A stretch of DNA of 64,000 nucleotides. It comes from Flavobacteriales bacterium. GTDB lineage: Bacteria > Bacteroidota > Bacteroidia > Flavobacteriales_F > PHOS-HE28. Under the pieces are notes generated by a model. The model searched no databases, was not told the origin of the DNA, and saw only the letters and a program-made list of their open reading frames with translations. Both the position numbers and the translations under genes were made by a program. Positions 3,169-61,168 of the stretch are shown here, piece after piece. Each line of letters begins with the position of its first letter. Within the stretch, counting starts at the first letter, position 1. The stretch is from contig JADJOG010000047.1 of the NCBI GenBank assembly GCA_016713865.1, positions 26,729 to 90,728 of the forward strand, given 5' to 3'.

Positions 3169-4110
3169 ATGAGCAAGAGAATCCTCGTCATCGGCAGCTC
3201 CGGCCAGATCGGTACCGAACTCGTTGAAGGCCTGCGCGCTCGTTTTGGGAATGAGAACGTGGTGGCCAGCGACATCAAGCAGCCCCAAGTGGAGCAGAGC
3301 GGCCCCTTTGCCATGGTGGATGCCATGGACCGTCGCGGCATCGAGCGCATCATCGACAAGCATGGAATCACAGAGGTCTATCTGCTCGCAGCCTTGCTGA
3401 GCGCCACCGCCGAAAAGGATCCGGCCTTCGCGTGGAAGCTGAACATGGAGAGCCTCTTCATCGTGCTGGAGCTGGCGCGCGAAGGGAAATTGAAGCGTGT
3501 GTATTGGCCCAGCAGCATCGCGGTGTTCGGCCCCACAACGCCGAAGGACAAGACGCCGCAGCAGACCGTGACCGAGCCAACCACGGTGTATGGCATCAGC
3601 AAGCTCGCTGGCGAAGGCTGGTGCCAGTACTACCACAAGCGTTACGGCGTGGATGTGCGCAGCATCCGCTACCCCGGCCTCATCGGCTGGAAGAGCGCGC
3701 CCGGTGGCGGCACCACGGATTACGCGGTACACATCTTCCATGAAGCGATAAAGCACGGCAAGTACACGAGCTTCCTCGGGCCAAAGAGCACGCTGCCCAT
3801 GATGTACATGCCCGACGCCATCCGCGCCACCATCGACCTGATGGAAGCGCCGGCCGAGCAGGTGAAGGTGCGTAACAGCTACAACCTTGCGGGCTTCAGC
3901 TTCGACCCCGAACGGATCGCAGCCGAAGTGCGCCGCCATATTCCCGGCTTCACCATCGACTACGCACCGGATCACCGCCAGGCCATCGCCGATAGTTGGC
4001 CGCGCAGCATCGACGATAGCGTCGCCCGCACCGATTGGGGCTGGAAGCCGCAGTACGACCTCGCGGGCATGGTGGATGAGATGATGGTTAATCTAAAGAG
4101 GTTGATATGA
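3169..4110 (+). CDS. NAD-dependent epimerase/dehydratase family protein, most likely short-chain-type L-threonine 3-dehydrogenase
   Basis: Internal start [19 protein letters not shown] (Rossmann GxxGxxG) within ORF 3052..4110, with YGISK and [10 protein letters not shown] motifs. Length 313 aa. Confidence 0.6.
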
Positions 4111-4206
4111 GGTTGAGGGTTGATGCGGGTTGAGGGTTGTTCCTTCGCTTCGCTCGGAATGACAGGGTTGATGCGTGTTGAGGGTTGAATGCGCCCAATC
4201 CTCAAC
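4101..4206. repeat. MITE-like intergenic repeat, copy A. Terminal inverted repeats GGTTGAGGGTTG / CAATCCTCAACC flank the core GTTCCTTCGCTTCGCTCGGAAT.
   Basis: Direct sequence comparison with copy B at about 61038..61168. Both share the 22-nt core and G-rich terminal inverted repeats. The element overlaps the stop codon of the upstream gene. Confidence 0.6.
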
Positions 4207-4270
4207 TTCGAGTCCGGTGCAACCTTCATTCGACCTGAGCCGTTTCGCGCCTCGCGAAGCACAACACGCC

Positions 4271-5143
4271 ATGATTCGTCAATTCACTCTTCTGTTTCTC
4301 CTGCTCGTAGCAGGTCGCGTTGCCGCATTGGCCCAGGACACCCTGAACGTGATGGACGAGATGGGCCGCAAGCAGGGCTACTGGAAGGTGCTGGCCCCGA
4401 AAGCGGAGAAGCCCGAGTACAACGATGGCCAACTGATCGAGGAAGGCCGCTACAGCAATAGCAAGCGCGTGGGCACATGGAAGCGCTATTGGCCCAACGG
4501 CAATGTGATGAGCGAGATCAACTACCAGATGGGTCGTCCGAAGGGCGACTACCGCACCTACTACCCCACAGGGAAAGTGGAGGAGCAGGGTACCTGGGAT
4601 CTGGATCGCAACACCGGCAAATTCCAGCGTTGGCACCCGAATGGGAAGCTCGCGCAGGATTTCATCTTCAACGCTTATGGCGTGCGCGATGGCGAGCAGA
4701 AGTACTACCACGAGAACGGACAGCTTGCCGTGGCGGTGAACGTTGAAGAAGGCAAGGAAGACGGAACATTGAAGCGATACGACCCCAATGGCCAGGTCAC
4801 GCAAGTGGCGCAGTTCAACGATGGCGTGATCAACGAAGCCAACAGCAAGTGGATCAAGCCCGTACCCAAGGCCGACGATGTGAAGGTGGACCCGAAGGCC
4901 GAGGCCGCGCCTGCCCCAGCACCTACCGAGCGCACCAACGCCATGGTATTCCGCGAGAACGGCTACAACACGCTCTACGACAAGCAGCTCCGCCTCTCGC
5001 AGCAGGGCGAATTCAAGGATGGCCGCCTGTGGGACGGCAAGCGCTACGAGTACGATAGCGATGGCCTCTTGAAACGGATCAAAATCTTCAAGCAGGGCCG
5101 CTACTTGGGCGATGCCGTCATCACCGAGGAGGACCTGAAGTAG
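4271..5143 (+). CDS. MORN-repeat / YwqK-family lipoprotein
   Basis: Signal peptide MIRQFTLLFLLLVAGRVAALAQ. Repeated Y(W)PNG...EG.W MORN-like units. Confidence 0.65.
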   Translation: MIRQFTLLFLLLVAGRVAALAQDTLNVMDEMGRKQGYWKVLAPKAEKPEYNDGQLIEEGRYSNSKRVGTWKRYWPNGNVMSEINYQMGRPKGDYRTYYPTGKVEEQGTWDLDRNTGKFQRWHPNGKLAQDFIFNAYGVRDGEQKYYHENGQLAVAVNVEEGKEDGTLKRYDPNGQVTQVAQFNDGVINEANSKWIKPVPKADDVKVDPKAEAAPAPAPTERTNAMVFRENGYNTLYDKQLRLSQQGEFKDGRLWDGKRYEYDSDGLLKRIKIFKQGRYLGDAVITEEDLK

Positions 5144-17393: not shown

Positions 17394-17837
17394 TCAGCGC
17401 AGTTCGATCCGGCTCTTGCGCTCGAGGTCCGTGAGCGGCTGGAAGCGGAGCAGATGGAAATCGGCTGTGCCGGCCAGCATGCGGATCTCGGATGATGCCC
17501 TGCCGAACTCGCGTCCATCCTGATCCTTGGCGATGGCCATAATCGCCCCTGTGAAATCCTGCTCGGCGATCAAGTACAGCATCAGTCGGTTGTCGCGTCC
17601 TGCGCTGTCTTCCTCGACAACGGTCTTTCCGAGCGAGAGCCCTCGTGCTTTCAGGTCATCAGAAAGCGCCACATCGATGCTCCAGCTCTTCTCGACGCCG
17701 GTGGTCACGCCCTCGATCACCTCTGTAGCAGCTGATCCGGCTATCTCGCCGCCTTTGTTCAGCGCGCTGCGCGTCCCATCGGCCACGCGGCCGCAACCGA
17801 TCAAGGCGGTCGCGGCAAGGAGCAGGACCGGCCTCAT
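17394..17837 (-). CDS. hypothetical lipoprotein
   Basis: LLAATALIGC lipobox. ATGA overlap with the upstream M43 gene (17834..17837). Confidence 0.5.
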   Translation of the reverse strand: MRPVLLLAATALIGCGRVADGTRSALNKGGEIAGSAATEVIEGVTTGVEKSWSIDVALSDDLKARGLSLGKTVVEEDSAGRDNRLMLYLIAEQDFTGAIMAIAKDQDGREFGRASSEIRMLAGTADFHLLRFQPLTDLERKSRIELR

Positions 17838-19888
17838 CGCACCACGAATCGTGCGGCGCGCATGCCGCTGTTCTGAGCAACGCGCACGAAATAGGCACCT
17901 GCTTGAAGCGCGCGCACAGGTAGGTCGAAACGATGCTCGCCTTGCGCGAGCCGGCCCTCGTGCAGCACGGCTGCCGTGCGACCCGTCATGTCGAGCACCT
18001 CGATGCTTGCTGGCCCGCTTAGCGCGATCAAGATGGTCGCTTGCGCTGCGCCTTCAACTGGGTTGGGAGCGATCGCGATGGTATTGGCATAGGGCATCAA
18101 TTCCTCGACTCCGACAGGTTGTCCGTTGAGGTTGATGTCGTCGAGGTAGATGTTGTTGCCGCCATCGCTCTCGAACTCGAACTTGAACCGGAAGTTGGCC
18201 ACGCTATTCGCAGGGACCGCGATGTTGGTCAATTCGGTGAAAGCCCATTGCGAAGCGCTGTTCGGGATGAAGCTCGTTGTGGTCACGGGCGCCGTGGGCA
18301 ACGTGGTGCTGCCGCGCATGATCTTGCGAAGCGACCAGCTGGTGCCGCAATTGGTGCTGGTGTACACGTACAGCACATCGTCGCTTGTTGTGGTACGACG
18401 TGCGTAGGCGTGCCTGAAGGAGAGCCTGATCTCCGTTGCATTGCTCAGGTCAACAGTACGGGAAACCAAGGCATCCGTTCGGCCATTCATCGTTGTCGTG
18501 TTCACGATGCGCGCGCTCTTGCTGCCGGTGAAGGCTGCCGCAGTTGTCACGGTCCACGTGTTATCGCTCTGTGGATTCTCTACCATCCAGTCCGGTGCCG
18601 AGAAGCCGCTTATGGCCTCGAAGCCTTCTTGGAGCGGGGCAGCGGTGCCCGGTACAGCAAGCACGGTGATGTAGTCGACCTGGGTGCTGGTCTGGTTGCT
18701 GGTGCCATCGCTGGCGGTAAGGCTCACAGCGTAGGTGCCTGGCGTGTTGTAGGCGATTGCAGGTGAGGCGGAAGTGGAGGTGGCGGGTGAGCCTCCGGTG
18801 AAACTCCAGATCCGCGAGGTCACAGAATTGTAGCTCTCATCGGTGAAGGTGACTGTGCTTCCCTGGCAGATAACGCGGCGATCTGAACTGAAGGCCGCAG
18901 CGCACAGGACATCGGGCTGGCCAACGCCTGTGGCGGTGAGGTTACTGCCCGCGATGAGTTGGTTGCGCTGTGCCGTGCTGGAGGTGAGTGCAGCGATCAT
19001 TCGGGTCTTCTGTCCGGCGGTGAACATCTTGGAGCAGTAGGAGTACTCCATGAAATTCTCCACGTTGTCCAACGAGTTGCACGTGGTGCCTGAAAGCGTG
19101 CAGGTGGTCCAGCCGATGGTATTGGGCGTATCGGCCACGCCATCGTCGGTGTTGCAGCTGCTGGCCACACCAGGGTTGTTGGTGCCGCCCCATGTATGCT
19201 CCAGATTGATCCAATGGCCCACTTCGTGGGTGAGGGCCCGGCTGCGCGATGCGCTTCCGGTTCCAATGGCCCCGACGTAGGTATGTTGCATCACGATGCC
19301 ATCGGCAGCGCTGAAAATGGCCACCGAGCCTGGCGTGAGTGTGTAGCCGGCAGCGCCATCGGCGTTCGCACATACCCATACATTCAGGTACTTATTGCGC
19401 GGCCACTGGATCAGGTTCTTCATGGTCTGCGTGCCATCGGTGGTCAAGGCGCTAACCGTGCGGGTGATGCCTTTGGTGCAGTTGCCGCTGGGGTCTTTCC
19501 GCGCCAGCTTGAACTCGATATCGACATTGGCCACGATGGGCAGGAACTCGGGCCGCACGTTCTGCCAATCGGGATTCTGCCGGTTGAAGTCCTCGTTGAG
19601 GATGCGCATGGCATCGATCACCTGAGCATCGCTGATGTTCTCCGCTCCGTAATTGTGAATGATGTGGAAGACCACCGGAATGGTATAGGTGCTGCGCGCG
19701 CCCTCAGTGAAGTTGGCAGTCCATTCCTCCAGCTCGGCATTGGCTTGCTGTATCGCATCGATCAACTCTGGCGCATTGCCATGGAGGGCTTCGAGGTGCG
19801 AAGGGTCGTTGTGCTTGCACGGAAGGTGCTGCGCGCTGGTTGCGAAGGCTAAGAGCGCGGCAAACGGTAGAAGAGCGACTCGGATCAT
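17834..19888 (-). CDS. M43 (ulilysin/pappalysin-like) zinc metallopeptidase with T9SS C-terminal sorting domain, paralog 1
   Basis: HEVGHWINLEHTWGG zinc site (HExxHxxxxxH). N-terminal TIPVVFHIIHN M43 region. C-terminal CTD ...YFVRVAQNSGMRAARFVVR. Length 684 aa. Confidence 0.8.
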   Translation of the reverse strand: MIRVALLPFAALLAFATSAQHLPCKHNDPSHLEALHGNAPELIDAIQQANAELEEWTANFTEGARSTYTIPVVFHIIHNYGAENISDAQVIDAMRILNEDFNRQNPDWQNVRPEFLPIVANVDIEFKLARKDPSGNCTKGITRTVSALTTDGTQTMKNLIQWPRNKYLNVWVCANADGAAGYTLTPGSVAIFSAADGIVMQHTYVGAIGTGSASRSRALTHEVGHWINLEHTWGGTNNPGVASSCNTDDGVADTPNTIGWTTCTLSGTTCNSLDNVENFMEYSYCSKMFTAGQKTRMIAALTSSTAQRNQLIAGSNLTATGVGQPDVLCAAAFSSDRRVICQGSTVTFTDESYNSVTSRIWSFTGGSPATSTSASPAIAYNTPGTYAVSLTASDGTSNQTSTQVDYITVLAVPGTAAPLQEGFEAISGFSAPDWMVENPQSDNTWTVTTAAAFTGSKSARIVNTTTMNGRTDALVSRTVDLSNATEIRLSFRHAYARRTTTSDDVLYVYTSTNCGTSWSLRKIMRGSTTLPTAPVTTTSFIPNSASQWAFTELTNIAVPANSVANFRFKFEFESDGGNNIYLDDINLNGQPVGVEELMPYANTIAIAPNPVEGAAQATILIALSGPASIEVLDMTGRTAAVLHEGRLAQGEHRFDLPVRALQAGAYFVRVAQNSGMRAARFVVR

Positions 19889-19945
19889 TTCAGATGGGCT
19901 GTTGGCCCGGCTAATCTATGACGCGTCGGAAGAGTCGCGAGGGAA

Positions 19946-22024
19946 TCACTCAAGCATCAGGCGCGCTGTCGTACTCGATGCATTGTGGTGGAAACGAACC
20001 AGGTACGCGCCGCGCTCCAAGTGGTTCAATGCAATCGGCAGCAGCACGTCACCCGCTGGCAAGGTGCCCAAGTCGCGGTTCATCACGATGCGGCCGGTGG
20101 CATCAAGCAAATCGATGCGGGCATTGCCGGGAGCGCTCAAGAAAGCCACGATGCGGGTTTCACTCTGGGCGGGGTTCGGCAATAAGCGCAGCCCGCTCAC
20201 CGCTGTGGCTTCGTTCTCGCCAACGCTAACCGGCATGGAGCTGATGTTGATGTCGTCGAGATAAAGGTTGTTGCCGCCATTGCTCTCGAACACGAACTTG
20301 AAGCGGAAGTTGCTGATGTGACTGGTCGCGCTGATGTTGCTGACTTCCGTGTAGCCCCATTGCGATGCATCGCCCGGGACGAAAGAGCCAGTGGTTAGCG
20401 GCCCTGTAGGAAGGGTGGTTGTGCCGCGCATGATCTTGCGCAGGCTCCAGTTGGTGCCGCAATCGTTGCTGATGTATAGGCTCAGCACATCGTCGCTGGA
20501 GGCCGTGCGTCGTGCATAAGCCCAACGGAAGGAGATGGTGATGTCGTCGGCAGCGGTCATGTCGTAGGTGCTCGAGAGTAGCTCGACGCTGATTCCATTC
20601 ATCGCAGTGGAGTTGAGCACGCGTGCGCTCCGGCTGCCGCTGAAGGCCGCTGTGCTCGCGATGCTGAATCCATTCGCTCCCGCTGGCGTGGTGGTGTACC
20701 ATTCAGGGCCGTTCAGCGCCGCAACGGTCTCGAAGCCCTCGACCACAGGAGGTAGTGTTCCCGGGTCGGCCATCACGGTGATCAGCGCGTTCTGTGTGGT
20801 ACTGAGCGTGCTAGCGCCATCGCTCACGGTAAGGCTGGCGCTGTAGATGCCAGGCTGGCTGTAGGTGATCAATGGATTCTCCTCGGTGCTGGTATCGGGC
20901 GTGCCGCCGGGGAAGCTCCAGGTGCGCGATGTCACGCTGTGGAAGCTCAAGTCCGTGAAGGAGATGGGCGACCCCGCGCACACGAGCTTCTTATCTACTG
21001 CGAATTGCGCTTGGCAGAGCGTGGGTTGCTCATTTGCCCCAGTGGCCGTGAGGTTGGCCGGGGTCCACAATTGATTGCGCTGTGATGTGGAGCTGTTCAG
21101 CGCGGCGATCATCCGTGTCTTCTGCCCCTCGGTGAACATCTTGCTGCAGTAGGAGTACTCCATGTAATTCTCCACGTTGTCCAGCGATCCGCAGCTTGTT
21201 CCAGCCAAGGTGCATACGCGCCAGCCTACCGTGTTGGGCGTGTCGCTCACGCTATCGTCGCCATTGCAATTCTCCGGAAGCTCCGGTTCGTTGCTATTGC
21301 CCCATGTGTGCGCCAGGTTGATCCAGTGCCCGACCTCGTGCGTGAGCGTGCGAGAGCGAGAGGGAGACGAAGTGCCGATTGCACCCGTGTAGGTGTGCAG
21401 CACGACGATGCCATCCCATGTTGGCTGGTTGTTCACCGAGCTAGGGCGGTAGGTGTAGCCGGCAGCACCATCGGCACTGGCGGCCACCCACACATTGAGG
21501 TATTTGTTGCGTGGCCACTGGATCAGGTTCTTCATGGTCTGCGTGCCGTCGTTCGTGAGCGTGCTCACCGTACGCGTGATGCCGTTGGTGCAGTTGCCCT
21601 GCGGGTCGCGTTGGGCCAGTTTGAATTCAATGCCCACATCGGCTACCAATGGCAGGAACTCGGATGGCACATTCGGCCAGTCGATATTCAGCTTATTGAA
21701 ATCGTTGTTGAGCACGCGTACCGCATCCTCGACCTGCGCGTTGCTGATGTTCTCCGGTCCATTGTTATGGATGATGTGGAAGACGACAGGGATGGTGTAC
21801 ACCACGCGCTCGGCTCCGGAGTTGTCCATTGCCCATTGGGCAGTGAAGGCCTCCAAGCGCGCGTCCTCCTCCATCACGGCTTGCAGGTAGGCTTCGGGTT
21901 CGCCGCTGAGCTGGGCGGCTTTCGCCAAGTCGTTCGCACCGCATGGATGCACATCGCTTTGGGCGATGAGCGTGAGAGGGAGGAGTGCACCAAGAAAGAG
22001 CGCGGAAAGGACGAGGAATCGCAT
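19946..22024 (-). CDS. M43 zinc metallopeptidase with T9SS C-terminal sorting domain, paralog 2
   Basis: HEVGHWINLAHTWGN. Signal peptide MRFLVLSALFLGALLPLTLIAQ. C-terminal ...YLVRFHHNASSTTARLMLE. High identity to paralog 1 (MEYSYCSKMFTxGQKTRMIAAL). Confidence 0.8.
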   Translation of the reverse strand: MRFLVLSALFLGALLPLTLIAQSDVHPCGANDLAKAAQLSGEPEAYLQAVMEEDARLEAFTAQWAMDNSGAERVVYTIPVVFHIIHNNGPENISNAQVEDAVRVLNNDFNKLNIDWPNVPSEFLPLVADVGIEFKLAQRDPQGNCTNGITRTVSTLTNDGTQTMKNLIQWPRNKYLNVWVAASADGAAGYTYRPSSVNNQPTWDGIVVLHTYTGAIGTSSPSRSRTLTHEVGHWINLAHTWGNSNEPELPENCNGDDSVSDTPNTVGWRVCTLAGTSCGSLDNVENYMEYSYCSKMFTEGQKTRMIAALNSSTSQRNQLWTPANLTATGANEQPTLCQAQFAVDKKLVCAGSPISFTDLSFHSVTSRTWSFPGGTPDTSTEENPLITYSQPGIYSASLTVSDGASTLSTTQNALITVMADPGTLPPVVEGFETVAALNGPEWYTTTPAGANGFSIASTAAFSGSRSARVLNSTAMNGISVELLSSTYDMTAADDITISFRWAYARRTASSDDVLSLYISNDCGTNWSLRKIMRGTTTLPTGPLTTGSFVPGDASQWGYTEVSNISATSHISNFRFKFVFESNGGNNLYLDDINISSMPVSVGENEATAVSGLRLLPNPAQSETRIVAFLSAPGNARIDLLDATGRIVMNRDLGTLPAGDVLLPIALNHLERGAYLVRFHHNASSTTARLMLE

Positions 22025-22209
22025 GGTGTGCTGAGGGGCTGGTTCAGCGCCAAAACTATTCGACTGCCCGAAAGACACGGGTCATGCTCAGGTAACAAGC
22101 CACGCAGGTCTTTGGCTCCTACGTGCGCTGGGAGAAGGAGTGGCACAAGCCCCCCGCCGACAAGCTGTTCACATGGCCCGATGGAGCATGGCTCGGCCCC
22201 GATGAGCGC

Positions 22210-24257
22210 CTAGTGCACCACGAACCGTGCGCTAGCCTCTTGGGTTGCCATCCGCAGGCGCAGAACGTAGGCTCCATTGGCCAAGCCTGCCAGGGGCAGG
22301 CGCCAGCCAGAAGAGGTGAGATCCGCTGCGCGCACCAGCCCCATCGAGATTTCTCGACCAGCGGGATCGATGATCGCCCACTGCGCGCCCGCCCACTCCT
22401 GTGGCAGATCGACCCACGCCTCTGTTCCTGCAGGATTGGGGAATATGTTAATGGCATTGGGCTCCCGCGCCGCTTCATCGATGCCTACCGCCAGCGGTGA
22501 AATGTTGATGTCGTCGAGGTAGAGGTTGTTGCCGCCCATGCTCTCGAACACGAAACGAACCCGGAAGCGCGAGGTGAGCAACGATGCGCCGATGTTGGTG
22601 ATCACGGCTTCTTGCCATTGCTCAGGGCCACTGGGCACGAAGCTTCCGCCTTGCATCGGTCCGGTTACCAGGGTGGTGATCGCGCGGAGCACTTTTCGCA
22701 GCACCCAGGTCTGGCCGCAATCGCCGCTCACATAGACATACAGGGCATCATCATTCGATGGGCTACGGCGGGCGTATGCGTATCGAAAGGAGAGCGCGAC
22801 GGGTCCCGAGCCATTCAGGTTCAAGGTGGAGCTGATCAACTCATCAAAACGGCCTGATGCCTCCGTGGTGTTTATCAGGCGCACCGACCGTGAACCGGTA
22901 AAGGCCGCGGCGCTAGTTGTTTCGAAGCTGTTATCGCCATCTGGATTCTCGGCGCGCCACCAGTCATCAAGATTCTCCGCGCCCTCGAATCCCTCGCTCC
23001 ATGGCAAGGGTGCTCCCGGGTTGGAAAGCACGCGGATGTGGTCGGTTCGTATTTCCGTTATCAACGCGCTTCCGTCTCCAACGCTCAGGCTCACGGGGTA
23101 GCTGCCGGTGCTGTTGTAGGTAATGGTCGGGCTCGTGTTGAATGAGGCTGAAGGTGTGCCGCCCTCGAACGACCAGAAGCGCTGGGTTACTCCGAAGAAG
23201 CTCTCGTCGGTGAACTGCACGGTTGATCCCTCGCACACCTCGCGCCTGTCGCTGCGGAATTGCGCGCGGCAGAGCTGCTCTGGCTCGAGCACGCCGGTGA
23301 GCACGAGATTGGCCGGCTGCCACAAGTTGTTGCGCTGCGCGATGGGCGATGTGAGCGCGGCGACCATGCGGTCGCCCTGACCTTGCGTGAACATCTTGCA
23401 GCAGTACGAATACTCCATATAGTTCTGGACATTGTCCAGCGCGCTGCCGCAACTGGCGCCGCTAAGCGCGCAAGAGGTCCAGCCGCGGGTGAGCGGGGTG
23501 TCGGCTACTTCATCATCCATGAAGCAGTTGTCGTCCGTCCCTGGCTCATTGCTATCGCCCCAGCAATGCTTGAGGTTGAGCCAATGTCCCACTTCATGTG
23601 TGAGCACACGGCTACGGTAGGAGCGCCTGTACCGATGCTGCCCGTGTAGGTGTGCAGGATCACGATACCATCCGCTTGTGGCCAGCCATCGAGCCACCCG
23701 GGTAATAGGTGTAGCCCGCGGCGCCATTGGCACTGGCGGCAACCCATACGTTCATGTACCGGTCTCGCGGCCATTGGATCAGCTGCGTCATCTCCGAAAT
23801 CACCATCGTTGGTCCGTGAGCTCTTCGTGCGGGTGATCCCGTTGGTGCAATTGCCTTGCGGGTCGCGTTTGGCCAAGCGGAATTCCATGCCTGCATCGCC
23901 CACGATGTCGATGAACTCGGGCCTTACGGTGGCCCAGTCGGGGTTCTGCCGGTTGAAGTCGTCGTTCAGGATCCGGATGGCGTCGTATAGCTGCGCGTCG
24001 CTGATGTTCTCCGGCCCATCGTTGTGGACGATGTGGAAGACCACCGGGATGATGTAGCCGCTACCACCACGCTCGAAGCCGTCGAGGCGAGCTTTCAATG
24101 CGGTGCGCGCAGCTTCGGCGCGCGCTAGGGCATCCGGGTTCTCGGCTAGCTGCCGTGCCAGTTGCTCAGGATTATTGGCAAGGCAGCGGAAGCCTTCGTC
24201 TTGCGCGCTGGCATGAACGAAGGGCAGAAGCAGCAGAAGAAGCGTGATCAGGCGCAT
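22210..24257 (-). pseudogene. M43 zinc metallopeptidase with T9SS C-terminal sorting domain, paralog 3, disrupted by at least three frameshifts between about 23600 and 23830
   Basis: The N-terminal part (MRLITLLLLLLPFVHASAQ...IPVVFHIVHNDG) is in ORF 23505..24257. The middle segment QWPRDRYMNVWVAASANGAAGYTYYPG is in ORF 23660..23896. The catalytic HEVGHWLNLKHCWGD site and the C-terminal sorting domain are in ORF 22210..23742. Confidence 0.75.
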
Positions 24258-34842: not shown

Positions 34843-35733
34843 ATGAAACGAATCGCGACACTTCCGCTCATGTGTGCATTGATTCATCCGGGTTCGGCGC
34901 AAGTGGTGGGTGAGTTCCTCGAGATGAATTTCGAGTCGGGCGCCACCCTGGTCCTGGACAGTGTTTATCCAGCAGGTTGCTGGCAAGTGGGGAGACCTGC
35001 GAAAACTCTGTTCACCACCGCGCTCAGCCTTCCAAACGCGCTTGTCACGGACACACTGCTTCCTTATCCGTCTTTCACCACGTGCTATGCTGAGTTCACA
35101 CTCTTAGCTGATGAGTCCTCAAATGATTATGGTCGCTGGTTCGAGTTCGATCATTGGTTGGACCTCGCTCCGGGCAGTAGGGCCTACATAGAGGCCCGCG
35201 ACACCTGGTCTTCCGATTGGTCAAGGTTGAACGACGGCTGGTATGCGGAGGGAAGCGTGATCAATGGACCCCAGGGTTATGAATTCGCGGGCAGCACAGG
35301 CGCATGGGAGCATGTAGCCTTCGACTCGCCTTGCGGCGGTGTGATGCAAGCGACAGCCGATCGATGGTATGACCCGTTGATGCGGCTTAGGTTCGTGCTT
35401 GAAGCAGGCGATAACGGTAGCGGCCGCGATGGCTGGATGATCGATGACTTTCGTGCCACGGCTACCATTTGCGCGGGCGGCCTTACGGAACACAGGGTCA
35501 GCGGCTTGAAGATCTACCCGAACCCAGCGAATGACAGGGTGCTCATTCAGTTTCATGGCAATCCCGGTCCGTCGACAGTGCAAGTGATCCGTAGCGATGG
35601 CGCTATAGTCGCGGTGACTACCGTGCAAGGCGATCGAATCGGCTTGAGCGTTGATGAATTGCCATCAGGGCCCTATCTGATACGTTCCATCGGTAGCATG
35701 CCAAAGCAGGCCATGCTCCTCATTCAGCGTTGA
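34843..35733 (+). CDS. hypothetical secreted protein with T9SS C-terminal sorting domain
   Basis: Signal peptide MKRIATLPLMCALIHPGSAQ. C-terminal KIYPNPANDRVLIQF...GPYLIRSIGSMPKQAMLLIQR. Confidence 0.6.
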   Translation: MKRIATLPLMCALIHPGSAQVVGEFLEMNFESGATLVLDSVYPAGCWQVGRPAKTLFTTALSLPNALVTDTLLPYPSFTTCYAEFTLLADESSNDYGRWFEFDHWLDLAPGSRAYIEARDTWSSDWSRLNDGWYAEGSVINGPQGYEFAGSTGAWEHVAFDSPCGGVMQATADRWYDPLMRLRFVLEAGDNGSGRDGWMIDDFRATATICAGGLTEHRVSGLKIYPNPANDRVLIQFHGNPGPSTVQVIRSDGAIVAVTTVQGDRIGLSVDELPSGPYLIRSIGSMPKQAMLLIQR

Positions 35734-35746
35734 GGCCAAAGCCGCT

Positions 35747-38700
35747 TCACGGCAATTGCTGCGTCCTTGTATTCGTCGGAACGCTTCCGCCAACATTCAC
35801 GAGAATTGGATCGCGGTCGTTGTTCTCCCCGGTGTAGCGGAAGATGCCATCCATGTTCACGTCGGCTTGGTGATAGCCCGGCGCGCTCAAAGCCGTTGGC
35901 ACGTTGCCGCCAATGCTCAACAGGATGGGATCGCGGTCATTGTCCTCACCGGTGTAGCGCAGGATGCCATCGCGAGAAACATCACCGCTCCAGAGCAGCG
36001 CCTTGCCATCGCGCAGCCGACGGGCATCGGTCCCGTGCATGCTGAGCGCAGGGTTCGAGAAGTCGATGCTCGCTGGGGTCGTGCTCAATGCTTGCGGGGC
36101 CGCAGTCATTGCTCCCAGATGATTCCGGTGCTTCACGGCGATTCGGTAATTACCATTTCCGGCGCGGAAGCTTACAGGCGAATCTCCGTCGATGTCAACC
36201 ACATCGCCATCGCGCTGCAGCAGTGCTGAGCGAGTGGCAAGCACGGTTGACGGCGAGGTGGCATCGCGCAATTCGAGCATCACCCAATCGACAATGGCAT
36301 TATTGCCCGATTGGACGAGCACGGCAGGCGCCACGGTCTCGCCGCCGCCGAAGTACTGCTGGAAGCCAAGTCCGGTGTAGGGCTCGGTCGAAGGGATGTG
36401 GGAGCCGCTGCGCAAGGCATCGCTCATGATGTCCGTGACCTCATCATAAGGACCATCGAGCAAGAGCTTCAGGGCCACGCGCACGCCATTGCGCTCGATC
36501 ACCACATCGTCGAGGTGCAGCCAGTTGCCATAGCCATTGATATTCACGAAGCGCACGATCACTTGCTGGCCGTCGAAAGCGCTTAGGTCATCATCGTGCT
36601 GCTGCCATTGACTGCAGGCGGTTGGTGTCCAGGCTGAGGTGACATATCCTGTGGTTTGCAGGGCCGCACCCGTGGCCTGGAATGTGGTGGTCCAAGTGAG
36701 CCCGCAATCGCCGCTGACCTCCACGCGCATGCCATCGGGGTAAGCAGAGCTATAGCCGCTGTAGGCGTGCTTGTATTTGAGGCGCGTGCCAGCCGATCCA
36801 CTCAGGTCTATTCGCGGGGTAACCAAGCGATCTTCTTGGCCCGGGGCGCTTACGGAGTAGTTATCGATGCCCCAGACGCGCGCGCCTACGCAAGACTCTT
36901 GGGCGGAAACAGCACGGGTCACCCATGTGGTGCCGTTGTCGGGATTCTCGAGTAACCAGCCCGCAGGGATCGGCGGGGTGCTTTCAACATTCGTGGTATA
37001 GGTCGATGCAGCACTGGATGGAGTAGTGAGGGTGATGCTCGATGCAGCTGCGTCATTCGGGACGTACTGATCCCCCGCAAGATTCGTCCGTGCCGTCACG
37101 GTATGTGGCCCATCGCCTGTGATGGTGAGTGTTTGCGCGAAGGTGTAATCGGCAGAGGCGCCTGCAGCGAGTGTCCCGGCGTAGGCGGCCAGCACCTCGG
37201 AGCCTCCATCGAGCTGATAACGCAGCTCGAAATTCGATTGTGGCTGCTGACCGAAGTTTCCGCACGCGAACAACGACTGGGAGATTGCTTGCCGCGCAGT
37301 TGAAGAGGTTTCCGCTGGGCGATAGCACTTGAGCGATGCCCACGTTGTTGGCCACGGGCATGTCGAAGGCCTCGCTCTGATCCGAGCGGCTGGTGGAGAG
37401 CCCTTGACTGGCGCTTGCTCCCAAGCCGCGGCGCGCGAAGGCTGCCCAGATCGCGGTCTGGTTAGCACCGCCGTAAAGTGCTTGATCGGCGGCGAGTATC
37501 GCGTCACGACCATCAACGAATCCTGGATTGCAGGGTGTGAGCTTCAGGCCTTCAATCACCAGTCGCATGGCGATGTTGTTGCCGCCGGTGCCATTGTAAA
37601 TGTCCGGGTCCCAGCCGTAGATGCCGATCAGCTCCCAGGTCATCTCCCAGAGCATGGTACACCACACGAAACCGATGCCATGCGGCTGGCTCAATCCACT
37701 ATTGGTGCTTGCATAGGTGTAGTTGTTAACGCCGAAGCTGGTGCTGTAACGAGCCGGGCGGATGCCCGCACCCGTGGTAGGCTGGCCGAGCACATAGGTG
37801 CCTACGCCACGACCGGTTGAACCGGTATCACCTGCGCGTATCGTCATAACGATGCCGAAATAGTCGCTCCAGCCCTCACCCATTTGCTCAGCGTTGCCCA
37901 AGCAGCTCGTGTTCGCCGGACCGCCAACGAGGCGGTTGCTGATGCCGTGGCCGTACTCATGCGCGATGATCCCATTATCCAGGTCACTGTCGCGGTTGGG
38001 CGTGGTATAGGTCCACCGATACATCTGCATCCGTGGATTGCTGCCATCGGGTGGAGTGCCGAAATTGGCGTTGTTGGTGCCGCTGCCATCCTGCGCATCT
38101 GCATCAACGGGGTCGCTGCCGACGCCGCCGCGGCCGTAGTTGTTCTCTTGGAAGTTGCCGGCCGGGTCATTGAAGCCATACTGGTACCACACGTCGTGCA
38201 TCAAGTTGTTCCAGTAGAAGAGGTTGGTGGTGGCGGCGGGCAGGTAGGTCGAAGGCGCCTGTGCGAAATCAATCGGGAAGTCGAAGTCGAGCGTTGCGCC
38301 GCCATCTGGTCGCGTGCCACCGGTGTTGTTGGCATCGGCATCTTCTTGCGCGAAGCAGTTGTTGCCGCGCGTATCCGAGAACTCTGCACCTGCTACACCA
38401 TTGGTGTCGTGCCAGCCATAGGGCGAAGCGGTGCCGCCATCGAGCCAAGGGGCGTTGCTCAGTGTGCGCGGGCCGTGGCTCGGACTCTCCAAAGGCCAAT
38501 CGAACACGTTGTATTCGTTGGGTGCGGCGGGAGCAAGTTCCTCTTCAGGCGAATGATCGGTGCAGCCATGATGTGTGTGGTCATCCCAGTTGCATTGCGC
38601 TACCCAGTCGTTGCGGTCCAGCTCTTCACCGGTGATGGCATCGACGCGCACGTTCCACCAATGCGAGCCATCGGGCGTGTAATGGTTCACGTTCCAGGCC

Positions 38701-39212
38701 AAGCGCAAGGCATCGCCTTTGGGCTGGAACACGAGCTGGGCTATTATGGGCTCGTTTCCGAAAGCGCTGCCATCGAAGATCGCTTTGCGCCCTTCATCCT
38801 CTGCGCTCATCAGCTGCGGTGCGCTCTTATCGGGCAGGTTGCGTGCAATCACCAAGGCCACGGCGGCTTCGGCTGTAAGCACGGGTTCGGTAGCGTTCGC
38901 GCGTTTCCCGATGCCGGTGAAAGCGCCCACGTTCAACTTGAGCAATTCGCCATCTGGACGGAGATGCATAGCGATGTCGCCATTCCACACCTCGATGCCT
39001 TGCCAGCGCTGACGCAGGTACAAGTGACGGATCCCGCTTCCTTCCGAACGGTAATCGTCCTCGATCAGTAGATCCTTCAGGTCGCTTGCATGAAAGCCGT
39101 CAAGCAACAGAAGCTGCTCGGTTTTCGCTGGCAAGGGAGTTGAGCTCTGGGCAGAAACGCAGTTCGCTGAAAATACGAGGGCAATGAGGGCGAGGGTCGG
39201 CTTGTGTATCAT
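35747..39212 (-). pseudogene. M36 (fungalysin-like) zinc metalloprotease, copy 1: FTP propeptide, M36 catalytic domain, shared middle domain and a dockerin-like C-terminal module. One frameshift near 37300.
   Basis: Signal peptide MIHKPTLALIALVFSANCVSAQ. HEYGHGISNRL (HEXXH) in ORF 37053..39212. The continuation in ORF 35747..37516 includes D-x-N-x-D-G loops (DVNMDGIFRYTGENNDRDPIL). There is no classic T9SS CTD. Confidence 0.75.
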
Positions 39213-39282
39213 GGGGATGGGCGCAAAATAGAAGGAACGCCTATGCCCGTTTTTTCACGAAACCTGCAGAATGAGGATTCCT

Positions 39283-42200
39283 TCACTCGGAAACCACGAG
39301 GCGCTCCACGCCGAAGGCGCCATCGGGCCCAATGCGCAGGAAATACACGCCGGGTACTGGACGGCGCAGCGCGAGTCGCACAAGGCCCTCTGCCCCGGTA
39401 TCGACGCTCATCGGGACAATCTGCCCTAAGGCATCACGCAGTTCGATCGGCGTGCCGGGCTCCGGTAGCAGAAGTGTGAACTGGCCATTGCCCGGGTTCG
39501 GGAATGCCCGTTGGCCTTGATGGCCACGCTTCATGCTAACCATATCCGAGATCTCCTCGGATCCATCGATGTCGATCATGCGCAAGCGATAGAAGCTGGT
39601 GCCCGCTAGCGGCGCGGGATCGAGCAGTGCGTAATTCGAGAGCATCAGCGATTGGCCGCGCGCTTCCATGCGGCCAATGGCGGTCCAAGCGCTTGCATCA
39701 CGCGAGCGCTGCACCTCGAAATGGCTGCTGCCGCTCTCACTGGCCGTGCTCCATTCCAACAGCACGCCGTCAGCCACCTCGCGGCCTTTGAAAGAGAGCA
39801 GCTCCACTGGAAGTGAAGAGGATCCCGTGAACTGCACATTGTCTAGATACAAGGTGTTGCCGTAGCCATTGATGCCTACGAAGCGCACGAGCACGGTCTG
39901 CCCGTCATAGGCGCTGATGTCGAGATTGTTGGCCCTCCACTGCGCGCAAGCACCCGGGGTATACACTCCAGTGTTATCCGGTGCGGTGGCAAGCGCGGCT
40001 CCGCTCTGGTTCAGCAAGGTCACCCAGTTGCCGCCGCAGCTGCCGCTGATTTCAACGCGGAAACCATCGAAAAGCGAGGCATTGTACCTGGCATAGGCGT
40101 TGTCGAATCGGAGACGGGTGCTGCTGAGGCTCACGAGGTTCACGAGCGGTGTAATCAAGCGGTCTTCCTGTCCTATGCCGTTATAGTTGAAGTTGTCGAT
40201 GTACCAAGCGCGCGATGAGGTGCACGAAGGCCCGGGGCCGATTGCCGGAACGATTGTGCTCCAGGTGTAAGCATTGTCAGGGTTCTGAAGCGACCATCCG
40301 GCAGGCGTTGGCGAAGCGGCAGAAAGGCCCTCGCTGTATGGCGCCATCACGGTTGTGCCAGCCGTAACGGTGATTGATTGTGATTGGGCATTGTCCACGG
40401 CGTACATGTCGCCGGTGAGGTTGGTCTCCACCTCCAAAGTGTGCGTGCCCGCCGAAGGTGGAGTGAAGGGTGTGGCGAACGTGACGGTGACGGACGCACC
40501 AGAAGCCAGAGGGCCCGGTACATTCTGCGTTACCCATGCGCCGCCGTTCAAACGGTAACGAACCGGGAAATTGCTCTGTGAATTGGTTCCGAAGTTGCGC
40601 ACCACTGCACGCACGGTTACAGGAGAGGACGGGCAGAGGTAGAAGGCGGTTCCGGGCTCCGTGATGCTGGATACGCCAACATTGGTGGGTACTGGCGAGC
40701 TGTACGATTCCACCTGATCAGTACGGCTGCCCGCAGTGCCCTGGCTGGCACCGCTGCCCAAGCCGCGCCGGGCGAAAGCGGCCCAAAGCGCCGTGTTGTT
40801 GGCGCCGCCATACAGGTTCTGATCAGCGAGCAGGATGGCATCGCGGCCCTGCACGAAACCGGGATTGCATGGCGTGAGCTTCATGGCTTCAATCACTAAG
40901 CGCAATGCCCGATTGTTGCCGCCGTTGCCGTTGTAGATGTCGGGGTCGAAGCCGTGGATGCCAATCAGCTCCCAAGTCATTTCCCACAGGATGGTGCACC
41001 ACACGAAGCCCATTCCGTGCGGCACGGTGAGGGCTGTATTGTTCGTGCTTGCATAGGTGTAATTATTCACCCCGAAGTTGGTGCTGTATGGAGCGGGCCT
41101 GATGCCGCCGCCCGTTGCTGGCTGCCCCACCACGTAGGTGCCGATGCCGCGTGGCATAGGACCCGTATCACCGGTCTTCATCGTGAGCATGAGCGCTAAG
41201 TAGTCGCTCCAGCCTTCGCCCATCTGCTCAGCATTGGTCAGGCAGTTCACATTCGCTGGACCGCCTACGAGTCGATTGCTCACGCCATGACCATATTCAT
41301 GTGCGATCACGCCATTGTCCAGATCGCTCGTGCGATTGGGCGTGGTGTAGGTCCACACGTACATCTGCATGCGTGGACGTGTGCCTTCGGCGGGCGTGGC
41401 GAAGTTGGCGTTGTTGGTGCCGCTGCCATCGAGCGCATCGGCCAGCACATAATCGTTGCCGGTGCCGCCACGGCCGTAATTGTTCTGCTGGAAGTTGCCC
41501 GACGGATCATTGAATCCGTAGCCGTAGAGCACATCATGCACGGTGTTGTTCCAGTAGTAGAGATTGGTGATGAGGGCGCTTTGATAGGTGTTAGGCGCAT
41601 TGGCCAGATTGATCGGGAAGTCGAAGTCGAGCGTAGCGCCGCCATCGGGAGCGGCCGATCGTGGTCTCATTGTCGTTGGCGATATCCTCCTTCGCCCAAA
41701 CGTTGTTGCCTCGGGTTGTCGTGTACTCCGCGCCCGCAGCGCCATTCGTGTCCTGCCATCCGAAAGGCGATGCGATCCCGCCCAGAGTCCAAGGCGCATT
41801 GCGCAGGGAGCGCGCTCCGTGCGAAGGGCTCTCGACAGGCAAGCCGTACACATTGAAATCGTTCGGAGCCGCCGGCATCATCGATGCGTCCTCCGGGTGC
41901 GCGCAGTCGTGGTCGTTATGCGGGTGATCCCACGTGCAGGAACTCACCCAATCGTTGCGGTCGAGCTCCTCGCCGGTCATGGCGTCGATCCGTACGTTCC
42001 ACCAATGGCTGCCATCAGGCGTGTAATGGTTCACGTTCCAAGCAAGCCGCAAGCGGTCATCAACGGGTTGATAAACGAGCTGTGCGAAGGGCGATTCATC
42101 GCTGAAGCCTGTTGCATCGAAACGGATCAAACGCCCGCCATCCAATGATTCGATGATCGCAGGGGTCGCGACCCCTGGAAGATTCTCTGCAAGCACGCTG

Positions 42201-42556
42201 GACAAAGCGGAGGTCGCGCTGATCGCAGGTGTTGTCGCGTTCACGCGTTCGGGCAACCGATTGAACGCTCCGATGTGCGCTTCAACGACGCTGCCATCCG
42301 CACGTTGATGTATCGCGATGTCGCCATTCCACACCTCGATGCCTTGCCAACGCTGCCGGATGTAGTTGTGAGTGAGGCCAAGTGTTTCCGAATCGTAACG
42401 ATCCTTAATGATCACATCCTGCAGGTCGGCGTCAATCAGATCGGCTTTCGCCAACCGGGATTGAATTGAGCCGAGCAATGAGGCAGCATCGTCCTGCGCA
42501 TGCCCGAAGGAAACGCTGGTGACCAGAACGAGTGCGACTAAGAATCTCAGGATCAT
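39283..42556 (-). pseudogene. M36 (fungalysin-like) zinc metalloprotease, copy 2, with T9SS C-terminal sorting domain. One frameshift near 41650.
   Basis: Signal peptide MILRFLVALVLVTSVSFGHAQ (ORF 41591..42613). HEYGHGVSNRL in ORF 39283..41853. C-terminal ...VYFLRIGPDGAFGVERLVVSE. Confidence 0.75.
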
Positions 42557-42719
42557 GGCATTTGCGGGATCGAAAATAGGGGCACGCCGCACATTCAACA
42601 ATAGCCCCTGCAATCGGTTCGATTGGGTCCTTGGCCCCTCTGCGAGGCTACATTTGGACCGCCGTTAAGAACGCCGTGCTTCGCAAACGCCTCTCAACGA
42701 GGACCAAATAGACAGATTC

Positions 42720-43130: not shown

Positions 43131-43146
43131 TCGCGAAACAATTCTT

Positions 43147-43190
43147 GCACGAGCGCCCCGGCACAATGCCGGGGCGCTCGTGTTTCGGTT
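43147..43190. terminator. bidirectional intrinsic terminator between convergent genes
   Basis: GCACGAGCGCCCCGGC-acaat-GCCGGGGCGCTCGTG followed by TTTCGGTT. Confidence 0.6.
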
Positions 43191-43215
43191 CCCGCTCACG
43201 GCAATTGTTCGGTCC

Positions 43216-61030: not shown

Positions 61031-61037
61031 CGGGGGC

Positions 61038-61168
61038 GAAGTTGGGGGTTGTTCCTTCGCTTCGCTCGGAATCACCAGGTCGACAGAGGTTGGGGGTTGA
61101 ACTCATGCTCCGACATTTGCGGCAATCAACCCTCAACCGTCTTTCGAATCAACCTGCAACCCCCAACC
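61038..61168. repeat. MITE-like intergenic repeat, copy B. Terminal inverted repeats GGTTGGGGGTTG / CAACCCCCAACC and the same 22-nt core as copy A.
   Basis: Direct comparison with 4101..4206. Lies in the divergent promoter region between the GT9 gene and tatD. Confidence 0.6.

Follow-up and report, generated by a model that had tools for sequence, protein, structure and literature searches.

REPs typically have the flanking tetranucleotide GTAG and are lineage-specific, and the SDRs of Nostocaceae, the subject of a 2008 account by Elhai et al., are said to be very small, mobile-looking modules inserted into other short repeats. Doublets of REPs that are mobilised by RAYT transposases are called REPINs (Bertels and Rainey, 2011, PMC3116915). 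SDRs measure 21-27 nt and are reported only in Nostocaceae (PMC5861425). G-rich heptameric repeats of the form GGGNATC have been described in Xanthomonas and Nostoc (Rehm et al., 2015, PMC4692102); these 7-nt G-tract units of intergenic regions occupy either the sense strand just past a stop codon or the antisense strand at most 50 bp upstream of an ORF, are variable, and can form stem-loops in inverted arrangements (PMC4692102). G-quadruplex formation, preferably from four units, is a further hallmark of the class. Here, we describe a repeat that occurs twice in a 64-kb stretch of Flavobacteriales DNA (the window, meaning the whole stretch that was analysed), once at the end of an epimerase gene (copy A) and once between the divergent genes for GT9 and TatD (copy B). 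Both loci are confirmed to be genuine copies of a small, non-coding dispersed repeat. A sequence-only reading had taken them for MITE-like elements; the conserved, mobile-looking part is a 24-nt hairpin core, which that reading had treated as the interior of the element.

Anatomy of the two loci

The 22-nt core GTTCCTTCGCTTCGCTCGGAAT, reported earlier from both loci, is present exactly at 4139-4160 and at 61051-61072, on the plus strand in each case, with no third match in the window at up to 3 mismatches and 0 expected from 100 shuffles. These 2 copies in 64 kb are both intergenic and both single units, and the core is absent from about 150 kb of DNA from relatives. The features mapped around it are as follows.

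Copy A:
4100..4139, plus strand, G-rich heptamer array of GGTTGAG units with a 17-nt super-period (TRF, motif matches)
4111, 4128 and 4176, plus strand, GGTTGRGGGTTG-type units
4140..4163, plus strand, mini-hairpin core TTCCTTCGCTTCGCTCGGAATGAC of 24 nt (exact 20-mer and 22-mer matches), with the reverse complement GTCATTCC-GAGCGAAGCGAA-GGAA
4164..4187, plus strand, second G-rich block, a 24-nt direct repeat of 4116-4139 with 96% identity, the starts lying 48 nt apart (repeat search)
4177..4206, plus strand, terminal hairpin of GTTGAGGGTTG, an 8-nt loop and CAATCCTCAAC (repeat search, folding, orthologue comparison)
4196-4207, complement of GGTTGRGGGTTG with 2 mismatches

Copy B:
61038..61051, plus strand, left G-rich unit GAAGTTGGGGGTTG, 8 nt upstream of where GT9 starts
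61040 and 61088 on the plus strand, 61127 and 61157 on the minus strand, GGTTGRGGGTTG-type units
61052..61075, plus strand, mini-hairpin core TTCCTTCGCTTCGCTCGGAATCAC (exact core matches)
61086..61100, plus strand, second G-rich unit GAGGTTGGGGGTTGA, a direct repeat of 61038-61051 at 48-nt spacing and the 5' arm of an inner hairpin (repeat search)
61101..61125, plus strand, central loop, containing GACATTTG at 61112-61119
61126..61168, plus strand, C-rich heptamer units TCAACCCTCAACC (61126-61138) and AATCAACCTGCAACCCCCAACC (61147-61168), complementary to the G-rich units and ending 5 nt before the probable TatD start

What the copies have in common is limited to an ungapped unit of 61 nt (4129-4189 against 61041-61101, 78% identity). 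Over 4128-4191, 50 of 64 positions are identical, the flanks agree at 8 of 28 and at 4 of 24-28 positions, and outside the unit the identity of copies A and B is at the random level. The ends of the unit are direct repeats of GTTGRGGGTTG, not inverted ones, and in both copies the core is flanked by direct repeats with a spacing of 48 nt. What had been read as terminal inverted repeats are units of degenerate arrays, (GGTTGRG)n on one side and the complement on the other, and the homologous unit does not include the C-rich partner arms, which stand at unequal distances and have unrelated loops in the two copies. This anatomy does not support a 95-130-bp element bounded by terminal inverted repeats of about 12 bp, since homology is limited to the 61-nt unit with its direct-repeat ends and stops at 4189/61101, before the C-rich arms. 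Nor is there one inverted-repeat pair per locus, with several G-rich units at each and several C-rich units in copy B. The motif GGTTG(A/G)GGGTTG, which had been placed upstream of the core, is present there, with one mismatch in the copy B unit AGTTGGGGGTTG. Its inverse complement, placed about 50-90 nt downstream, also exists, except that the copy A version (CAATCCTCAACT) is imperfect and begins just 36 nt past the core.

Target-site duplications, searched for at both loci, flank neither 4101-4206 nor 61038-61168, and the sole direct repeats flanking the core are the internal heptamer blocks. As stated earlier for the window, no transposase was noticed near the repeat in a non-exhaustive look, and neither the window nor the fetched loci of relatives showed a related autonomous IS with matching termini.

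In the window, matches to GGTTGRGGGTTG with at most 1 mismatch are confined to the two repeat loci, and at up to 2 mismatches there are 16 matches versus 7.5 expected. TRF detected tandem 7-nt G-tract units in copy A (periods 7 and 17, period-7 consensus GGTTGAG) and, in related composites, periods of 7, 17 and 40 nt (L093) or 7 and 16 nt (L023), with CAACCCC and CAACCCT as the period-7 consensus; the arrays are degenerate (72-76% matches). Each locus has 3 to 5 GGG tracts, which the core interrupts. The arrays resemble the Xanthomonas and Nostoc heptamers in unit length, intergenic location, variability and inverted arrangement, and also in their placement, being G-rich after the stop codons of the epimerase gene and at L023, and C-rich on the sense strand upstream of GT9, tatD and hgmA. 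They differ in the unit (GGGTTGA or GGGTTGG), the Flavobacteriales host and their short, degenerate form, and copy B is flanked by divergent genes, an under-represented location among the published repeats (PMC4692102).

Composites of array and core were found at both window loci, at L006, L023, L093 (three times) and L134, and, with other G/T-rich repeats, at L117 and L072. In every composite site found, the G/T-rich strand carries the core in its TTCC-to-TGAC orientation, with the junction ...GTTG/TTCC. Because a metagenome scan for the GTTG+core junction yielded one further locus, the heptamer/core composite may be rare.

Orthologous loci and gene boundaries

Loci orthologous to copy A carry arrays without the core in three relatives (L120, L121 and L122) and neither array nor core in four others (L124, L125, L129 and L130); the loop of the copy A terminal hairpin, AATGCGC, is common to L121. 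For copy B, L131, whose GT9 gene is 98% identical, carries the identical element. L133 has arrays without the core and a left junction, CATCGGGKGCGAAGTTGGGGGTTG, that is also conserved in the window, followed there by the core. L132 has a short spacer with a diverged proto-arm only. Sequence orthologous to the left G-rich unit of copy B is present in L133 and, diverged, in L132, and diverged sequence aligns with the outermost copy B arms even in L132, an "empty" site. Relatives have core-less arrays at further intergenic sites, too. The comparison thus yielded empty (L124, L125, L129, L130 and L132), array-only and full-element sites, a presence/absence polymorphism at orthologous positions. 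The same sequence in the corresponding loci of relatives, together with a total of only two copies in the genome, had been named as the finding that would indicate a conserved regulatory sequence; at these loci the element is absent or reduced to the array, except in L131, where it is identical. The arrays are lineage-specific and already stand between the same genes in relatives.

Both loci affect the ends of neighbouring reading frames, as had been proposed. The epimerase gene (called "threonine-dehydrogenase-like" before) ends in ...KRLI-TGA, with its stop at 4108-4110 within the first heptamers, so that the array carries its final codons and TGA; the tail reads ...KRELGx in array-less relatives and ...KRLIGG in array-bearing ones. 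Copy B fills the divergent promoter region of GT9 and tatD and adds spurious N-terminal extensions to both ORFs. The ORF at 60053-61075 (minus strand) begins VIPSEAKEQPPTSPP, ahead of the true GT9 start MKLLVL at 61030, and the ORF at 61042-61962 (plus strand) reads through copy B ahead of the TatD start, for which the TTG at 61174 is the probable codon. A gene caller lengthened TatD by 24 codons in the 98%-identical strain.

The mini-hairpin in other phyla, viruses and plasmids

Judged by its sequence, the core is a member of a very widespread family of mini-hairpins, GTCAT-NNN-GAGCGAAGCGA(A)-N'N'N'-ATC, in which the stem covaries and the loop is invariant. At least 119 genome loci from many phyla contain an exact copy of the 20-mer, with several core copies per MAG in rumen Bacteroidales, and related stems were found on at least 120 viral contigs and also on plasmids, often as REPIN-like inverted doublets. 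A search that left the 3' stem unspecified found 5/5 stem pairs in 38 of the 71 unique viral 28-mers, versus 10.3 expected. The short imperfect palindrome thus keeps its stem and invariant loop through at least 7 stem variants (ATTGC/GCAAT, ATTCT/AGAAT, ATCCT/AGGAT, ATGTT/AACAT, ATACT/AGTAT, ATGCT/AGCAT and ATCGC/GCGAT), and the Flavobacteriales copies have an ATTCC-stem variant of 4 bp plus an A-C mismatch. In the viral loci, 47 of 109 units form inverted doublets of one fixed geometry. A perfect doublet on the Novosphingobium plasmid pSA1 folds with z = -14, and a Calothrix plasmid carries a stem variant of the hairpin. A single 27-nt unit has about -2 kcal/mol and a z near 0 in nearest-neighbour energy models, and the case for a hairpin in the single unit comes solely from the covariation, because these folding energies are uninformative. 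The loop of the mini-hairpin contains GCGAAGC, which we take to be an unusually stable DNA mini-hairpin, and the G and A residues flanking GCGAAGC could form G.A pairs. Relative to genes, the orientation of the core has a weak bias of about 2:1, a figure from crude ORF calling that is not relied on here.

Two candidate assignments were rejected. Archaeal 20-mer matches (Methanothermococcus, Nanoarchaeota) are not counted as members; they have no GTCAT/ATC frame and may be due to chance or convergence. A hammerhead-like reading of the long-form loop (GAGGAG-stem-CGACGAA) was dropped, as the loop has C at the second position of the CUGAUGA core, where U is presumably essential, and there is no Rfam hammerhead match. 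Rfam scans by gathering threshold across the window, by E-value at both of its repeat loci, by gathering threshold at 18 other loci and by E-value at L040 gave no family match, with only chance-level matches at the repeat. Searching the literature for 12- to 22-mers from the core and from stem variants of it returned only chance primer matches, and we could not find a description of the hairpin family in Rfam or the searchable literature.

It is possible, and we put it forward tentatively, that the core is the Flavobacteriales variant of an undescribed cross-phylum family of mini-hairpins carried on viruses and plasmids, whose spread would be driven by one machinery acting on single-stranded DNA hairpins or by convergence on an optimal fold. 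If true, no smaller class of mobile repeats would be known from bacteria.

Origin of the composite loci

On balance we lean towards a REP/SDR-like hairpin module that was copied between G-rich heptamer arrays, so that each locus is a composite of two kinds of repeat. The first layer consists of degenerate GGTTGAG/GGTTGGG heptamers with complementary C-rich units shortly downstream; because the C-rich units complement the heptamers, folding of the spacer into one long, imperfect hairpin is possible. Such arrays would be resident intergenic features of this Flavobacteriales lineage that expand, contract and diverge where they lie, with slippage and conversion as the most likely cause. In the second layer, the 24-nt module would behave like REP/REPIN or cyanobacterial SDR elements and, in the window species, would have joined the G-rich arm of two arrays that were already there, within the unit of about 61 nt. 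From the two copies we infer copying from array to array, in which the core unit would use the short homology of the heptamers (gene conversion or template switching); alternatively, a trans-acting enzyme that recognises single-stranded DNA hairpins may have moved it. Going by their description, SDRs are alike in being mobile-looking modules (here of 24-25 nt) that lie inside other short repeats, with absence at the orthologous sites of relatives, and unlike in having been reported only in Nostocaceae. Any effects on expression, such as a hairpin at the 3' end of the epimerase RNA or structure in the divergent promoter, would be secondary.

Those effects would come first if the arrays were a selected cis-acting G-rich/C-rich hairpin, possibly competing with a G-quadruplex, that served as a 3'-end, stability or termination element of the epimerase transcript and as a regulator of the GT9/tatD divergent promoter, with the core as an added stabilising mini-hairpin. 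We consider this unlikely, with some evidence in its favour. In several relatives the same genes are again separated by arrays, even though the sequence turns over, and the arrays are placed as regularly with respect to stop and start codons as the published G-rich heptamers. The whole 143-nt spacer of copy B folds at -64 kcal/mol (z = -4.4), and copy B, L006 and L134 all fold strongly (z -4.4 to -6.8), but the hairpins of the copy A locus are barely more stable than shuffles (z -0.4 to -2.5). The sequence GACATTTG resembles TAnnTTTG, which we take to be the Bacteroidetes -7 promoter motif, and L133 has GACCTTTG at the matching position; the promoter-like GACNTTTG is retained in the loops of both, and a promoter role for GACATTTG in the copy B loop may be inferred. 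Against a selected structure, five close relatives (L124, L125, L129, L130 and L132) have empty sites, and no intrinsic terminator was detected, there being 0 terminator-like sites in 4000-4300 and, after the copy A hairpin, TTCGAG in place of a T-run. Rfam gives no family, and no regulatory role could be identified by Rehm et al. for their own repeats (PMC4692102).

A more improbable reading takes the core as a REP proper, the substrate of a RAYT or other HUH enzyme encoded elsewhere, with the heptamers merely its preferred target. Like REPs and REPINs, the core is an imperfect palindrome of 20-30 nt, apparently mostly extragenic and dispersed, with a covarying stem and a conserved tetranucleotide (GTCA, invariant at the 5' side) on one side of it, and the inverted doublets of fixed geometry that it forms outside the window, with a short spacer that gives a long hairpin, resemble REPINs (Bertels and Rainey, 2011, PMC3116915). 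However, in 215 loci neither a RAYT nor an HUH gene could be linked to the core, and comparing 5,911 ORFs near cores all against all by BLAST revealed no recurrent neighbouring protein family in these loci, only related phage-gene clusters. The window copies are singletons inside heptamer arrays, GTCA differs from the GTAG typical of REPs, and a near-identical sequence with a loop invariant across phyla and viral contigs would be unusual for lineage-specific REPs. A possible IS200/IS605 link was also rejected: an IS608 TnpA query matched one ORF, at L204, the only IS200-like TnpA nearby, and that IS lies 80 nt from the doublet and has different end hairpins.

Least probable of all, and already disfavoured by the anatomy given above, is a 95-130-bp MITE with G-rich/C-rich terminal inverted repeats of about 12 bp moved in trans by a transposase encoded elsewhere, which would account for the inverted 11-13-nt matches (61041-61051 with 61157-61167 at 100%, 4129-4139 with 4196-4206 at 91%), for the whole block missing in some relatives (L124, L132) and for the folding of copy B as one long hairpin (z = -4.4), but not for homology that ends well within the proposed termini, for unlike loops and arm distances, for arms that are multi-unit heptamer arrays found without the core at the same and other loci, for copy B outer arms that align with resident sequence in L132 and L133, or for the lack of target-site duplications and, in the window and the fetched loci, of a matching autonomous element. 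The repeat shares with MITEs its small size, non-coding nature, presence polymorphism and hairpin capacity, and is unlike them in having no element-defining terminal inverted repeats, no target-site duplication and, in the window and the fetched loci, no parent IS. Of the small mobile or REP-like family proposed by the sequence-only reading, what stands is that the repeat is dispersed, non-coding and polymorphic in relatives; the MITE anatomy is not supported.

For annotation, a hairpin module within heptamer arrays matters in that such repeats shift gene ends and create false N-terminal extensions, and at GT9/tatD the whole divergent promoter region has been turned into a hairpin. The window would record a two-layer history of intergenic DNA, with heptamer expansion in place followed by the addition of the 24-nt module. 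If the hairpin module is truly undescribed, it would offer a tractable entry to the movement of very small repeats.

Two repeat copies and their anatomy

The repeat is present twice in the window, as copy A (4101-4206) and copy B (61038-61168). Exact matches to the 22-nt core GTTCCTTCGCTTCGCTCGGAAT occur at both loci, and GGTTGRGGGTTG-like 12-mers (≤1 mismatch) are confined to them within the 64-kb window, so this observation of the sequence-only reading is real. A third core match is absent from the window at ≤3 mismatches (0 in 100 shuffles).

Features of the two loci (window coordinates)
3169-4110, NAD-dependent epimerase gene ("threonine-dehydrogenase-like" in the sequence-only reading), ending ...NLKRLI-TGA
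4111, 4128 and 4176, + strand, GGTTGRGGGTTG-like 12-mers of copy A (≤1 mismatch)
4139-4160, + strand, core of copy A
4196-4207, weaker complement of the GGTTGRGGGTTG-like 12-mer, copy A
4271, ATG start of the MORN_2-like gene, next after the epimerase gene
61030, - strand, start of the GT9 gene
61040 and 61088, + strand, G-rich GGTTGRGGGTTG-like 12-mers of copy B (≤1 mismatch)
61051-61072, + strand, core of copy B
61127 and 61157, - strand, GGTTGRGGGTTG-like 12-mers of copy B (≤1 mismatch)
61174, most likely start (TTG) of the TatD gene, reading LELIDTHAH

By these gene boundaries, copy A lies in a 160-nt co-directional spacer and copy B nearly fills a 143-nt divergent spacer. MAFFT alignment and ungapped comparison limit the homology between the copies to 4129-4189 and 61041-61101, with identity at 50/64 positions over 4128-4191; the flanks match at 8/28 and 4/24 positions, which is random. 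The common unit consists, in order, of GTTGRGGGTTG, the core, about 15 nt and GTTGRGGGTTGAA, and its ends are direct repeats, not inverted ones (copy A, 4116-4139/4164-4187, 24 nt, 96% identity; copy B, 61038-61051/61086-61099, 14 nt, 93% identity), starting exactly 48 nt apart in both copies. The C-rich partner arms are outside the common unit in both copies and close unrelated loops of 8 nt (copy A) and 25 nt (copy B). No target-site duplication was found at either copy. The proposed MITE with G-rich terminal inverted repeats is not supported, since element-defining inverted repeats and target-site duplication are missing; the broader proposal, a small dispersed repeat with effects on gene ends, is supported.

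The supposed terminal repeats are arrays of degenerate (GGTTGRG)n heptamers or their complement. At 4100-4139, Tandem Repeats Finder (TRF) detects both a 7-nt (GGTTGAG) and a 17-nt period. Composites (core joined to array) outside the window have periods of 7 and 16 nt (L023) or 7, 17 and 40 nt (L093), the 40-nt unit being a heptamer pair plus a core-like hairpin, repeated 3.5 times. Core-free arrays of the same heptamers occur at further intergenic sites of relatives, for example upstream of hgmA (L120, L122) and at 5482/5528 (L006). Arrays take two placements: the G-rich strand is sense directly after a stop codon, which GGTTGA often itself provides, or antisense a few nt before a start codon, which places CAACCCYCAACC in the mRNA leader. 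At divergent genes this placement rule by itself yields an inverted repeat. For GGGNATC heptamers of Xanthomonas and Nostoc, Rehm et al. (2015, PMC4692102) describe the same placement relative to stop and start codons, and likewise arrays that differ strongly between relatives at the same genes; such repeats agree with the arms in every feature tested, but their unit sequence differs.

The window also holds an unrelated repeat family at 63306-63750, directly downstream of tRNA-Ser(GGA) (63217-63306), with three units of ~120-130 nt (82% mean identity) that contain GAA-triloop hairpins (GGCCC-GAA-GGGCC; in unit 2 the compensatory GGTCC-GAA-GGACC) and match no Rfam family. A 246-aa ORF (63106-63846) that spans this repeat and overlaps the tRNA is probably spurious. 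Tandem paralogous gene arrays (72-81% DNA identity) lie on the minus strand at 17800-24100 and 35700-44100, one with periods of 2112 and 2257 nt (three copies), the other with a period of ~3340 nt (two to three copies).

Orthologous loci in relatives

The best epimerase matches are 84-94% identical, with "MAG: Flavobacteriales bacterium" as every named source, and the window lineage is uncultured Flavobacteriales. Loci orthologous to copy A were defined by synteny (epimerase, then MORN). For copy B, a 100%-identical GT9 protein is present in an NCBI MAG.

Spacers at orthologous loci (protein identity to the window)
Copy A, L120 and L121 (epimerase 92%) and L122 (88%): G-rich then C-rich heptamer units, core absent
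Copy A, L124, L125 and L129 (epimerase 92%): 58 nt, neither array nor core
Copy A, L130 (epimerase 94%): 110 nt, neither array nor core
Copy B, L131 (GT9 98%, different sample): identical 143-nt spacer, core included
Copy B, L132 (GT9 92%): 67 nt
Copy B, L133 (GT9 86%, same genome as L121): larger heptamer hairpin, core absent

The epimerase C-terminus follows the state of the array: it reads ...KRELG[A/K/S/V] in relatives without one and ...KRLIGG, coded by AGGTTGATAGGTGGTTGA, in array-bearing genomes. The window has ...KRLI* through a GGT-to-TGA change (4105-4110), which makes its protein two residues shorter than the ...KRLIGG* form, and the ancestral stop (TGA of GGTTGA) is still downstream in frame. 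The array therefore provides the last codons, as the sequence-only reading had held.

At copy B, the left junction CATCGGGKGCGAAGTTGGGGGTTG is conserved between L133 and the window, and is followed by the core in the window versus AGGGTTG in L133. The ends of the L132 spacer, AGGTGCGCGTTG and GCACCCTCTACT, are still alignable to the outermost copy B arms. Taken over both copies, the pattern in these alignments indicates that arrays (or a proto-hairpin) preceded the core, which only the window's species gained afterwards. The ~150 kb searched from close relatives contained no core.

Several further features were observed at these loci. The gene caller's TatD start in L131 (1084-1926, equal to window 61105 onward) is an ATG inside the repeat; the called protein has 280 aa versus 256 aa in L133, and the extension is an annotation artefact due to the element. 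A palindrome, TTTCGCG-N3/4-CGCGAA (window 4243-4258, 13-28 nt upstream of the MORN_2-like start), is kept in L120, L121 and L122 at the same relative position; its conservation whatever the array state makes an operator or a leader hairpin a possible role. Neighbors of the epimerase locus in relatives include FG-GAP, ASPIC and Por_Secre_tail proteins.

A widespread hairpin family

The hairpin family to which the core belongs is very widespread. In the species-representative genome collection, at least 119 stretches contain an exact copy of the 20-mer TTCCTTCGCTTCGCTCGGAA; for a 20-mer in 596 Gb, chance alone would give ~1 match. Rumen Bacteroidales MAGs carry many exact copies per genome, and the matches listed include Flavobacteriales (with Christiangramia and Aequorivita), Melioribacter, Caldithrix, a Chlorobi-like MAG, Verrucomicrobia, Omnitrophota, Elusimicrobia, Nitrospirae, Hyphomicrobiales and Gammaproteobacteria; Methanothermococcus and Nanoarchaeota matches were left uncounted because the family frame is missing. 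A crAss-like phage has the exact 20-mer, and a Calothrix plasmid has an ATTAC/GTAAT variant. The consensus outside Flavobacteriales is aGA-TTCC TTCGCTTCGCTC GGAA-TGACA (opposite strand, GTC-ATTCC-GAGCGAAGCGAA-GGAAT-CT). Units with other stems and longer loops (GAGGAG-stem-GAA-stem-CGACGAA) occur near cores.

IMG/VR was scanned with GTCANNNNGAGCGAAGCGAA, leaving the 3' stem unspecified, and at least 120 contigs matched. A perfect 5-bp stem is formed in 38/71 unique 28-mers, compared to 10.3 with partners shuffled; stems are ATTGC/GCAAT (dominant), ATTCT/AGAAT, ATCCT/AGGAT, ATGTT/AACAT, ATACT/AGTAT, ATGCT/AGCAT and ATCGC/GCGAT. The three inner pairs covary, and the GTCAT...ATC frame and loop are invariant. 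Energy models give a single unit a near-zero score, so the hairpin rests on covariation; such models are not known to capture the extra stability of d(GCGAAGC) or of tandem G.A pairs.

Arrangement varies: 47/109 units at viral loci are in doublets of one geometry (GTC> <GAC, 24-26-nt spacer), and rumen ATTCC units are mostly single. Flavobacteriales composites have a heptamer in place of the ATC end (GGAA|CAACC) and a stem of just 4 bp plus an A-C mismatch. Plasmid pSA1 of Novosphingobium resinovorum has 4 matching places and carries a perfect REPIN-like inverted doublet with an ATTGC stem (record 667075-667150; -41.9 kcal/mol, z = -14). Ten IMG/VR contigs (L139, L145, L149, L158, L168, L189, L193, L232, L234, L248) are related and share many genes; in L139, L145, L193 and L232 a common conserved flank, GCAATC[C/T]CCTCTCCCTTGA, comes after the ATTGC hairpin, suggesting that it is a fixed structural element of that phage group. 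In rumen Bacteroidales MAGs (L014, L022, L080, L094, L109 and others) the core 3' half is tandemly amplified as ~24-nt units, CTTCGCTCGGAATGACAGAGGAAG, 2-4 times beside the full core.

Spread, function and known families

Composites were found at both window copies, L006, L023, L093 (three times) and L134, and also, with other G/T-rich short repeats, at L117 and L072; one match to the composite junction was found in the JGI metagenome collection, where it is rare. Every composite seen has the TTCC-to-TGAC orientation on the G/T-rich strand, and the GGTTG-type share the junction ...GTTG|TTCC; core and array are therefore joined in a fixed arrangement, not by two independent events per site, which fits a heptamer-core-heptamer unit being copied from one array to another.

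Beside the established two-layer anatomy, insertion polymorphism, covariation, breadth of distribution and effects on ORFs, a mechanism can be proposed in which heptamer arrays grow and shrink by slippage and the core-bearing ~61-nt unit would pass from array to array, by conversion over short homology, by template switching, or with the help of a putative enzyme that recognizes the single-stranded DNA hairpin. For the enzyme-driven route, the REP/RAYT system (PMC3116915) is the obvious analogue. No hairpin-recognizing enzyme was found, nor any recurrent gene family adjoining the cores in 215 loci. L204 (1-860) holds an IS200-like element (TnpA 145-593, end hairpins CCACCCGC...GCGGGTGG) and, ~80 nt away, a short-form/long-form hairpin doublet (781-856). 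This TnpA, the single one nearby, was rejected as mobilizer, having its own, different hairpins, with the doublet a neighbor and not a part.

A regulatory by-function of the repeat structures is possible: copy B folds strongly (-64 kcal/mol, z = -4.4), and its hairpin loop keeps GACATTTG (window 61112-61119, ~55 nt ahead of the tatD start), which with GACCTTTG in the central loop of L133 resembles the Bacteroidetes -7 promoter box, TAnnTTTG. However, the structure is altogether absent from close relatives, and the hairpin of copy A has no T-run after it and exceeds shuffles in stability by a marginal amount only.

REP/REPIN elements come closest to the core, but neither window copy is a doublet, and the core's tetranucleotide differs from the typical REP GTAG; cyanobacterial SDRs are a functional analogue. 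No Rfam family matches the repeat, and the core sequence is in no paper of the searchable literature. The finding belongs to known repeat kinds; its main value is in well-resolved composite intergenic repeats, with one potentially notable thread, and the conservation of the hairpin across phyla might be the new part.
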